Of a DNA stretch of 43,124 nucleotides, positions 15,001 through 18,000 are shown piece after piece. Each line of letters begins with the position of its first letter. Within the stretch, counting starts at the first letter, position 1. Made by a program: the position numbers. This DNA is from a virus (taxonomy: Duplodnaviria > Heunggongvirae > Uroviricota > Caudoviricetes): IMG/VR virus record IMGVR_UViG_2531839664_000026, positions 1 to 43,124 of that record. One strand, given 5' to 3'.

Positions 15001-18000
15001 CAGTTTCCAGCCCTGGCTTATCCCCACCACAATTCCGTCGGGGATCCCGGCTTCCGCCAGTGAATCCAGAATCTGCCCCACCCCTGACGGGTCAATACCG
15101 ATATGGTCCAGTAACTCAGCCTCATGAATGCGACGCACATACTCCGCCACTTCCGCCGTGTCATCCCCGACACGCCGGACAATGGTCATATCTCCACAGG
15201 CAACAAGATCCTGAAACCGGGACGCCTCGCTCTTCCGTCGGACCACCGCGGTTTCATGCGCCCAGGCATGGCCCCAGCCCAGCCATTCGCGGGTCTCCCG
15301 GTCACGCCCAATCACATACATCCCCAGCAGATCATCCAGCCCTCCGCCGTCAATCCCCACCGTCACCACATCAGCACGACGCAGGATATCGTCCAGGCTG
15401 ATACAACGGCCCTGCTCTTCCCAGAAATCCGCCCCTGCCCAGCGGTCAGAGCGCAGGGCAAGACCAATTTCCACATTGGCGTGTTTTGACATGAACCCCC
15501 GGAATGTCTCTTCCCCGGCTTCCCGGGCTTTACGGTACTCCCGGTACAGAAAGGCCTCATCCACTGAATAGCCGAGATTCGGATTGACCATGGCGAGGTT
15601 TTCCATCAGCAGGTGAGCCCCGCTTTCCACCATTTCAGGAGGGTGTTCAAATATCACCGGCAGAAAGTGCGGATCATTAATTTTGCCGTCGCGCACATCC
15701 CGGGCGTACTGCAGTTTCTGTCTGAACACCCCGGCTGGCGGTTCATTCGACTGGGTGGTCGTATACACCACAAACCCTTCCGGGCGGGAGGCAAGCCCGC
15801 CGATGGCTTCACGTAACATGTCCTCCGCCTTGTACTGCTTGCCAAACAGCCACAACTCATCAATCAGCGTCCCCACGGACTTGATACCGGACACCGTATT
15901 CGGATCGGCTGCCACCACCTTCAGGGTGGTGTCCGTCACCCGGTGGGTGATGGTCCGGATATGTGTCTGCACCTGACAGAGGTCATCCAGATCATCGTCC
16001 CGTCGTACCATATCCCTGGCAGGATTGAAGGCGTTGGCTGCCACCTCCACAGTCGGGGCCAGAATCGTGTAACCCGCCGCCTGCCGCCAGTTCAGTAACA
16101 GCGCCGTCATCATGATCCCGGCGGCCAGTGTGGACTTGCTGTTTTTTTGGGTATCAGAATGAACACTTCCTTGATATGGCGGACACCGGTCTGCGCATCG
16201 TAGGAGCCAAACAGAGCCGCCACCAGGTCAAACACCCACTGTGCACAGGACTCCCCGAACGTCGGGCTACCCGGTGCATCCACAATCCGCAGTTGTTTAA
16301 AAATCGCCAGGGCATGTGCGGCCTGGTCCGGATAAATCGGAGCCGGAATAATCGACAGCCCCTTTTTCAGGCGCTCTGCCCAGTCCGGGCAGGCCGTGCT
16401 CCATACAGGTATCATCCGTTGCCCTCATTATCGTTATTCACCACCAGTCGTGGTGGTGGTGGTACCGCAAAACGGTTAGCCGCTTTTTCGCGGCATCACC
16501 TTTTGCCGATTTTACCGGCATCGCCTTTTATGGTGTGTGAACTGCGCCAGTCGCCAGGCCGCATCCAGTGCCAGTTTCGGATCAATGCTGAGGTTTTCCA
16601 CCAGGATCTGCCCCATAGCTTTCACCGGATCGGGAAGACCATCCTCCATATATTCAATACCATGAGACATCACCGCGGGCGGTGGCATCTCCGGATTGTT
16701 TTCGTCCGGCTGTGGTATTGCAGCCACCTCACGGCGACGGGGTTTATCCTCCTGCTCTGATTTTTTCTGCCGGTAAACAGGAACCTCATCCACCTCCACC
16801 GTTTCGCACTGTTTACGGGCTATAAACGCGAGCACCTCCGGATCTTTTGCCAGCTGCGAGCCTTTAACCCTGGCGGTCTTCGCCGAATAACCGGCGGCAA
16901 TGGCTGACGCTGTTTTGTTTTTCCCGGACATGAGCGCCAGCGCAAATTTTCGTTTTTGCGTTGTCAGCACAGCCTCCTCCCGGGTCCATAACGCACTCAG
17001 CCGGGTATGGTTCAGCCCATTTTTCCCGGCGTCTCATGCCGCAAATGTTAACTGCTGCCTGGTTAACATTTGCTGAAAAAGCCAGTTAACATTTTTTTCG
17101 CACAACAAACTGAATAATAAAGATAAAAACCGAAAAAATGCCCGGGCAGCCAGTTAACATGTTAACTGGCCTGAAACAGGAATTTTTTCTCTGCATGAGA
17201 CGGGGGCGGTGTCCGGGGCGATCGTTTTTTCGCCGGATGATCCCCCCCCGGGGCGGGTCACAGTCCGATGATATCGTCTGCCCTGCCATGACCTCCGGCA
17301 GCGTCGGGTCCGGCATACCACTCGCCGTTTCACTGACTGACTTCTGGCGATGGCATTCGGTACAGAGCGTCCAGAGATTCGTCTCCTCATTACCACCACC
17401 GAACTGAAGTGCAATTCGGTGATCGAGTTCACTGTCACAAAGGTCAACCACACGCCCACAGAGACAGCACTGTCCGGCATCCCTGAGCCAGATACGGCGC
17501 TTGAGGGAAACCCGGGCACTACCACTGACCCGACGCTGTTCACCCTTCAGAACATTCACCCGCCGGGTGTTCAGAGTTTTGATTCTGCCCGGTAACGTAC
17601 GAAGCACAGCCATGTAAAATCCTCGCCATATAACTTGTCACCAGAGGAAAGAAAATGTCATCGAAAAACCGGACCCGCAGAACAACAACCCGCAACATCC
17701 GATTTCCAAACCAGATGATTGAACAAATTAACATCGCTCTTGACCAGAAAGGTTCAGAAAATTTTTCTGCGTGGGTCATTGAATCTTGCCGCCGGGAGCT
17801 GGCAGCAGACATAAAATATGCCCGTCAGTTGACTATAAAAAAGAATGATACACAGTATGCTCTGCGATGGCTGTTCATATAACTATTTCTTTATATTGCT
17901 GAATTTATAAAAAATCACAGACATTAGCTGTATTAATTCCGAATTGAAATAATCAGCCATATAGAATAAAAATAAAGCATAACAATAATAATCTTCTACC

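Follow-up and report, generated by a model that had tools for sequence, protein, structure and literature searches.

The GTTAAC repeats between the HNH endonuclease gene and the small terminase gene (terS) in the 43,124-nucleotide stretch of viral DNA analysed here (the window; IMG/VR record IMGVR_UViG_2531839664_000026) are probably the cosB equivalent, or recognition half, of the cos packaging site in a lambdoid Stx-type prophage, where they would be bound by TerS as part of an HNH-assisted terminase. The region is 90-98% identical to that of the Stx1- and Stx2-converting phages 2851, BP-4795, 1717, YYZ-2008, JLK-2012 and Lys8385Vzw. The minus-strand genes follow the order lysis genes, HNH (from 17613), spacer, terS and terL, with a divergent DUF3950/YlcI gene on the plus strand (17655-17882) between the lysis genes and HNH. 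Pfam searches returned HNH, Terminase_2 and TerL_nuclease in this order, and the cos site lies between HNH and terS.

The repeats are real and non-random. A motif scan of the 43-kb window placed GTTAAC cores at 17047, 17062, 17085, 17153 and 17161 (17047-17166 overall), confirming the five cores and the 22-bp perfect palindrome that the initial annotation had reported between HNH and terS. The window holds 13 copies of GTTAAC in total, against a whole-window expectation of 7.75, and the cluster accounts for five of them. The enrichment test across the window that had been proposed as a check also came out in favour of the cluster: the Poisson probability of at least five cores in a 130-bp stretch is 7e-11, or approximately 5e-8 when corrected for the number of stretches, and the biggest cluster seen in 300 first-order Markov simulations contained three cores. 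All five cluster cores sit within the 8-mer GTTAACAT or ATGTTAAC, of which there are just two further copies window-wide.

The position of the cut can be assigned by alignment with phages whose ends are available, in the first place with Lys8385Vzw, a 96%-identical phage whose TerS is 96% identical to that of phage 2851. Lys8385Vzw was sequenced from induced particles, and PhageTerm analysis gave a 10-nt 3' cohesive end, CGCCCCCCCT (PMC7946995). Its record ends in ...GGACACCGCCCCCCCT and starts with CTCACGCAGAGAAAAAATTCCCGTTTCAGGGCAGTTAACATGTTAACTGG, which places the overhang at window positions 17208-17200. The cohesive-end sequence of the putative cosN (17200-17208, minus strand) reads cgcccccgt, that is, 9 nt in the window, and takes the 10-nt form CGCCCCCCGT in an otherwise identical copy in E. 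coli O121:H19, the difference lying in a homopolymer. Virion DNA would then begin, at its left end, with window position 17199. Two other phages point to the same column: the record of the Burkholderia phage Bcep176 has its terminus exactly 10 nt ahead of the same CTCACGC box, and the right end of HK97 (...TGACCGCCGCCAAA) aligns column for column with ...ACACCGCCCCCCGT. The suggestion of the initial annotation that terminase recognition and cos cleavage are located in this region is thus borne out, with the qualification that the cut, being placed at 17208-17200, falls about 25 bp outside the interval originally proposed (17040-17175), which probably holds the recognition (cosB-like) part. With the cut at this position, the repeats would occupy +30 to +159, counted from the left end of the virion DNA, on the side that corresponds to cosB in lambda, and terS would start at +230. 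A cosN within the palindrome itself was ruled out, as the mapped ends lie 30 bp upstream of it.

Two further elements surround the cut. Directly downstream is a conserved box, CTCATGCAGAGAAAAAATTCCTGTTTCAG (17171-17199, minus strand), which contains an A6 tract (17188-17183; +12 to +17). This box is nearly invariant in 57 IMG/VR versions of the region and is conserved in the PICI-like satellite described below, and its pattern of CxCAC/TGC, an A/T tract and then CCC is recognisable in most distant relatives. About 45 bp upstream of the cut, a G8 tract (17242-17249, minus strand; -49 to -42) is followed by ATCATCC. A G tract of at least five residues, interrupted in some cases, recurs at this distance in almost every relative from Enterobacterales, Burkholderiales and Pseudomonas, as well as in the satellite and in HK97; it is a conserved upstream cos element and possibly resembles cosQ. 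Apart from the new motif, the cos site is an ordinary one.

The repeats themselves are arranged as two inverted pairs with a single copy between them. Sites A and B make up the 22-bp perfect palindrome GCCAGTTAACATGTTAACTGGC (17149-17170; +30 to +51), whose core, AGTTAACATGTTAACTG, is invariant across the compared phages, the satellite and the IMG/VR versions. Site C, AAAAAAATGTTAACTGGC on the gene strand (17081-17098), has its GTTAAC core at 17085-17090 (+110 to +115); its 8-mer shows no variation across the 57 versions or the satellite, unlike the TGGC flank, which does vary. Sites D and E form a second inverted repeat, absent from the initial annotation, with the arms GCAAATGTTAAC (17041-17052) and GTTAACATTTGC (17062-17073) separated by a 9-bp spacer (17041-17073 overall; +127 to +159). 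The 8-mers of D and E are invariant, and this inverted repeat is the final conserved element of cos. Centre-to-centre spacings of the five sites are 8, 68, 23 and 15 bp, a helical phase that is rough only. Between the proximal palindrome and site C lies a T-rich spacer (17107-17138, minus strand), in which T tracts begin at +62, +71, +79 and +91 (the last running through +93); its block TCTTTATNATTCA is conserved, including in the satellite, and the spacer is probably a bendable segment. An IHF site between the proximal and distal repeats was considered and ruled out: the consensus WATCAANNNNTTR has no match with up to one mismatch within 17040-17200, where phased T tracts are found instead. 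A sigma-70 promoter and an intrinsic terminator were likewise discarded, since the one weak site of each is what shuffled sequences are expected to yield. A vestigial ORF of 24 codons, lacking a Shine-Dalgarno sequence, starts at the ATG of the palindrome, and the 14-mer palindrome also occurs in 52 other IMG/VR contigs in unrelated contexts.

Variation among related sequences indicates that the motifs are selectively conserved, independently of the sequence that surrounds them. Across 57 unique IMG/VR versions, the 8-mers of sites C, D and E contain 0 variable columns out of 24, compared with 41 of 88 elsewhere in 17041-17152 (p=5e-6), a comparison drawn from closely related sequences to which the satellite adds essentially one diverged lineage. 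The palindrome was left out of this count because it had served as the search key. The Marienburgvirus/Pankowvirus Stx phages Lys8385Vzw, BP-4795, 2851, 1717 and YYZ-2008 have the same cos region at 90-97% identity and retain all five motifs. Most of them carry GGCAGTTAACATGTTAACTGGC, with one mismatched outer pair, together with an intact HNH of 121 aa, whereas the window has the perfect 22-mer and a 10-bp deletion in HNH. The packaging module is very common in E. coli: of 5426 complete E. coli genomes, 1123 contain a match of at least 80% to the HNH-cos-terS-terL segment, and a single genome can have as many as 11 matching places when matches of any length are counted.

The diverged lineage is a PICI-like island that carries the same cos at its end, without an adjacent HNH or terS gene. 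It encodes an integrase, a D5_N primase, SSB, PerC and lambda E-like and D-like head genes, and its copies adjoin phoQ, thiM and yejO in different strains; strain S1-CAM-02-A (NZ_CP145707) is one carrier of such an island. PICI-type satellites are known to have their own copy of a lambda-type cos (PMC6739421). In the island, sites C, D and E are identical at 24 of 24 positions, against 63% identity at the positions between them (p=9e-5), and the flanks have diverged. All five motifs are retained, and similarity drops to 37% directly past site E, a collapse from which the functional extent would be approximately 17275 to 17041. The annotated TerS of satellite L194 was considered for a co-variation test and set aside, as it is Nu1-like and unrelated to the TerS of the window.

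The palindrome can also be followed much further afield. The comparison extended to 51 distant relatives of TerS, 25-48% identical and drawn from Enterobacterales, Burkholderiales and Pseudomonas, at least 29 of which have an HNH homologue upstream of terS. Most share a layout consisting of a G tract, approximately 40 bp, (G)GACACCGC.../CTAGACCGC..., CTCACGC, an A/T tract and CCC, and in 40 or more this is followed by GTAAAC-AT-GTTAAC or GTTAA-N5-TTAAC, whose spacing to the cut is similar throughout and identical within Enterobacterales. The palindrome of these relatives contains the terS start codon (ATG TTA ACA...), and TTA, although a rare codon, is retained even where the host is GC-rich. 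The E. coli lineage alone has terS shifted away, by about 190 bp, and its GTG CTG ACA start is homologous to ATG TTA ACA; despite this displacement, the distance from palindrome to cut is unchanged. Because the palindrome stayed in place while terS moved, it is tied to cos and not to translation. Several Pseudomonas relatives have three further GTTAA units inside terS with a 12-bp period, encoded as Val-Lys (GTT AAA), two codons that are almost absent from the neighbouring terL in one of these relatives (GTT, 0 of 28 Val codons; AAA, 1 of 15 Lys codons).

The initial annotation had described the region as HK97-like, which holds for the HNH protein, TerL, the 10-nt 3' overhang and the upstream half of cos and does not hold for the TerS family or the downstream half that contains the repeats. 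HK97 and the window share the order HNH-cos-terS-terL and the 10-nt 3' overhang, which is known here via Lys8385Vzw, and upstream of the cut they share a G tract plus ATC at about -45, a GCCCC block and an ACCGCC box at the cut. When the two cos sites were compared as had been proposed, the upstream 70 bp aligned with a score of 34, against 7.9+-7.1 for shuffled sequences (0 of 500 shuffles reached the observed score), whereas the downstream 60 bp scored at the shuffle mean. HK97 TerS, which has no Pfam match and is unrelated to the Terminase_2 protein of the window, binds one 15-bp A/T-tract site at +15 to +29 (PMC11331095). This single site has a T tract; HK97 lacks GTTAAC repeats, and its terS starts at +50, compared with +230 here. 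A resemblance between the repeats and the HK97 TerS site was rejected, as there is neither sequence similarity nor an alignable site downstream. The half of cos that differs from HK97 is the half read by HK97 TerS, which fits the repeats as the TerS-specific part. In the literature searched, HK97, with its unrelated TerS, was the only HNH-type cos system with a mapped TerS site.

The cos of lambda is composed of cosQ, cosN and cosB, with the sites R3-I1-R2-R1 bound by gpNu1. The repeats lie on the side of the cut that is bound by TerS in HK97 and that carries the R sites in lambda. As in lambda, several motif copies in mixed orientation lie within about 160 bp beyond the nicking site, with a bendable AT-rich segment between them, the array lies just upstream of the small-terminase gene, and there is a conserved element upstream of the cut. 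In contrast to lambda, which has a 12-nt 5' overhang and relies on Nu1, R sites and IHF, the overhang here is 10 nt and 3' (from Lys8385Vzw), cutting needs an HNH partner, and a Terminase_2 protein is paired with an 8-10-bp GTTAACAT unit and no IHF consensus. The TerS of the window matches Pfam Terminase_2 with 36 bits (cut-off 26.1) over residues 2-57, an N-terminal helix-turn-helix, and its matches to PDB sequences are marginal only, to the SF6/SPP1-type G1P DNA-binding domains 2CMP and 4ZC3. It thus resembles G1P of SPP1 and SF6 in family and in its N-terminal helix-turn-helix, and recognition of the SPP1/SF6 pac by G1P involves repeated short boxes and intrinsically bent DNA. SPP1 and SF6 are, however, headful (pac) packagers with imprecise ends, whereas the family of the window has defined cohesive ends. 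The analogy with lambda and SPP1 is a functional one only, because HK97 TerS reads its single 15-bp site by a different mechanism.

In the mechanism that we propose, TerS would bind the GTTAACAT units on concatemeric DNA with its N-terminal helix-turn-helix domains arrayed on the oligomer. The units bound would be the proximal inverted pair (+30 to +51), the single unit at about +110 and the distal inverted pair (+127 to +159), with the T-tract spacer allowing the DNA to curve round the assembled TerS. This would place TerL and the HNH protein on the conserved GGACACCGC-CCCCCGT/CTCA box about 30 bp upstream (slash, cut), where nicks staggered by 10 bp would produce a 3' overhang, and packaging would then run towards terS and terL, i.e., in the direction of decreasing window coordinates. 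We infer that it is TerS, rather than another packaging factor, that reads the repeats, and that the DNA wraps.

The repeats could instead belong to cos and yet be read by TerL, the HNH protein, a host nucleoid protein or the ribbon-helix-helix-like DUF3950/YlcI protein, with TerS recognising the A-tract box (+8 to +25) in the manner of HK97. We consider this unlikely. The A6 tract at +12 to +17 lies in a box conserved family-wide and recalls the A/T-tract site of HK97 TerS (PMC11331095), but the two TerS proteins are unrelated and the sequences downstream of the cut do not align. The DUF3950 gene does adjoin HNH, but none of the 51 distant relatives, most of which have the palindrome, carries it within 1.2 kb upstream of terS, and in the DLP12 prophage of K-12 it accompanies a lambda-type Nu1 homologue, beside a lambda-type cos with no GTTAAC between the two genes; DUF3950/YlcI was for these reasons rejected as the reader. 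The absence of an IHF consensus speaks against that host protein, and we know of no E. coli regulator site that matches the GTTAACAT motif.

Two other explanations were considered. The distal copies might be neutral relics of a duplicated ancestral terS start (ATG TTA AC...), left by an insertion of about 190 bp in the E. coli lineage, so that only the proximal palindrome, or none of the sites, would be functional. The motif is indeed the terS start-codon region in distant relatives, and the 24-codon ORF at the palindrome ATG has the look of such a vestige, but relics would hardly account for distal 8-mers that are invariant amid variable surroundings, for a satellite that retains the distal copies exactly, up to site E, or for independent GTTAA repeats inside terS of Pseudomonas relatives; this explanation is very improbable. 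Equally hard to credit is a role of the inverted repeats as RNA hairpins in the late transcript, controlling translation of terS or transcript stability. A 171-nt RNA from the region folds at -53.1 kcal/mol (z=-4.1), with both inverted repeats forming hairpins, and a weak terminator-like hairpin with a T run is present at 17145-17130. Palindromic DNA sites would, however, give such a fold trivially, and there are no compensatory changes by which to judge it; site C does not pair, scans for terminators and promoters do not exceed chance, and the satellite keeps five of five motifs without a terS downstream. Recognition of the repeats by TerS accordingly remains the reading that we favour.

The cos end of a near-identical phage is already known, and a cos with a small-terminase repeat array is a classical class of element. 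The repeat array itself appears to be undescribed, as searches of the literature for the GTTAAC repeat motif strings returned nothing relevant and no paper mentioning the motif was found in the literature searched. As hypotheses, we put forward that a GTTAA code is family-wide and partly embedded in terS, and that satellites have copied the array. More fully, and with some hesitation, it is tempting to speculate that GTTAA(C) repeats are the recognition code of a widely spread group of HNH-dependent cos phages with a Terminase_2 TerS (Enterobacterales, Burkholderiales and Pseudomonas), mostly written into terS itself, across the start codon and as Val-Lys GTT AAA in the linker, such that the gene would double as the packaging signal read by its own product, TerS; in the E. 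coli Stx-type phages the code would have moved to a 190-bp non-coding array, which a family of PICI-like satellites would have copied intact. If this is true, such satellites would need no Rpp-like specificity switch to be mobilised by Stx-type helper phages. The module belongs to Stx1- and Stx2-converting phages, and knowing the bases of its packaging signal shows which co-resident prophages, defective prophages and satellites can be packaged by the terminases of the others. Such cross-packaging bears on the movement of toxin genes and islands. For cos phages with a Terminase_2-type small terminase, the array would also offer a defined and testable DNA target.

All three packaging genes of the window copy are altered relative to their homologues. 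The terS gene (16512-16970, minus strand), with a GTG start at 16970 and the Shine-Dalgarno sequence GGAGGAGG at 16980-16973, is truncated by contracted A runs and encodes 152 aa, compared with 187 aa in the full-length protein WP_000958402.1. The terL gene (14755-16415, minus strand; Pfam TerL_nuclease) is interrupted where an A run at about 16149 has contracted by 1 nt, which leaves ORFs of 101 aa and 452 aa, and is intact (553 aa) in relatives and in the O121:H19 prophage. The latter is the best match to the window and over 3 kb differs at eight contracted A/C homopolymers, with zero substitutions. Because the two differ only by homopolymers, the frameshifts in terS and terL and the 9-nt form of the C-rich box are probably assembly errors. 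The 10-bp deletion in HNH, at 17299/17298, is by the same comparison real and not an assembly error: it is common to the window, JLK-2012 and E. coli O121:H19, where the HNH copy is flagged as a pseudogene by PGAP. With the C terminus of HNH genuinely altered, the prophage copy in the window may be unable to package itself. The deletion also explains the apparent overlap of HNH with the repeats, and the initial annotation was right to suspect that the true stop of the gene is earlier than drawn. The literal ORF runs from 17613 to 17086 only because the frameshift removes the ancestral stop and allows read-through. In phages 2851, BP-4795, YYZ-2008, WGPS6 and 569R3, HNH is 121 aa long and ends at a TGA that is equivalent by alignment to 17260-17258, which gives an ancestral gene of 17258-17613 on the minus strand (Pfam HNH, 27 bits) and, therefore, a true HNH-terS spacer of 287 bp (17257-16971).

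The cos region of the window is also carried by elements in which some or all of the genes that adjoin it here are missing beside it. All five GTTAAC-core motifs and the same cos were found in PICI-like islands (L145, L192, L193 and L194) from which the adjacent HNH, terS and terL genes are absent; in L145 (IMGVR_UViG_2563366903_000013) the island cos region occupies positions 10690-10910. These islands encode an integrase, a D5_N primase, an SSB, PerC and lambda E/D-like head genes, and are inserted beside phoQ, thiM or yejO, the insertion point differing among E. coli strains. 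They are rare: among 5426 complete genomes, 6 contain 80% or more of the end of the island. One of them, L194, has an additional gene (2160-2702) for a Nu1-like protein, which is possibly Rpp-like. Cos without its own HNH gene was likewise observed in the PPompW prophage (L191, LC567822.1, positions 1046-2504), which also lacks the lysis genes and in which an IS110-family element, ISEc20, adjoins the G tract immediately upstream of cos, giving the order Q, tRNAs and then directly IS-cos-terS.

In the window the G tract lies at 17242-17249. Its length ranges from about 7 to 13 G across the relatives inspected, and HK97 and almost all of the distant relatives have a G tract at an equal distance from cos; it possibly has a cosQ-like role. 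The HNH gene of the window has lost 10 bp between direct repeats (CCGGAGGTGT-CCGGAGGT; window 17298-17299). This deletion, which is also present in the JLK-2012 and O121:H19 prophages, replaces the last ~18 residues and lengthens the reading frame by 55 codons, so that it runs through cos. On the minus strand, a vestigial 24-codon ORF (MLTGCPGIFSVFIFIIQFVVRKKC; window 17160-17086) starts at the ATG of the 22-bp palindrome, which is the ancestral start position of terS, and stops within site C. A Shine-Dalgarno sequence is absent from this ORF, which is probably not expressed.

When 3 kb of the window are compared with E. coli O121:H19 strain 16-9255, no substitutions are seen, and the only differences are eight A or C homopolymers that are contracted in the window, including those at positions 16149, 16489, 16514, 16530, 17207 and 17231. 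As a result of the contractions, terS and terL are disrupted and the cohesive-end box is shorter. The contractions appear to be errors of assembly or polishing, and further frameshifts in the window may therefore be artefacts too.

Related repeat units occur inside a coding sequence in five Pseudomonas relatives (L034, L036, L049, L061 and L064), where two to three GTTAA units, 12 bp apart, lie within terS at +160 to +210. In L034, L036 and L049 the units are encoded as Val-Lys GTT AAA; both codons are almost missing from the neighbouring terL of L049, which suggests that the units are a DNA signal embedded in the terS coding sequence. The palindrome 14-mer GTTAACATGTTAAC was also found in 52 unrelated IMG/VR viral contigs (e.g., L081, L086, L098, L144, L151, L168 and L174), often with TAGTTAACATGTTAACTA two to three times within tens of base pairs or with a near copy nearby, and these occurrences appear to be operator-type sites that belong to other phages. 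Upstream of the HNH gene, and divergent from it, lies a DUF3950 (YlcI/YnfO family) gene (window 17655-17882, plus strand). A gene of this family also precedes the lambda-type nohD in DLP12 of K-12, and it seems that lambdoid prophages regularly have DUF3950 in the region just ahead of cos, irrespective of terminase type.
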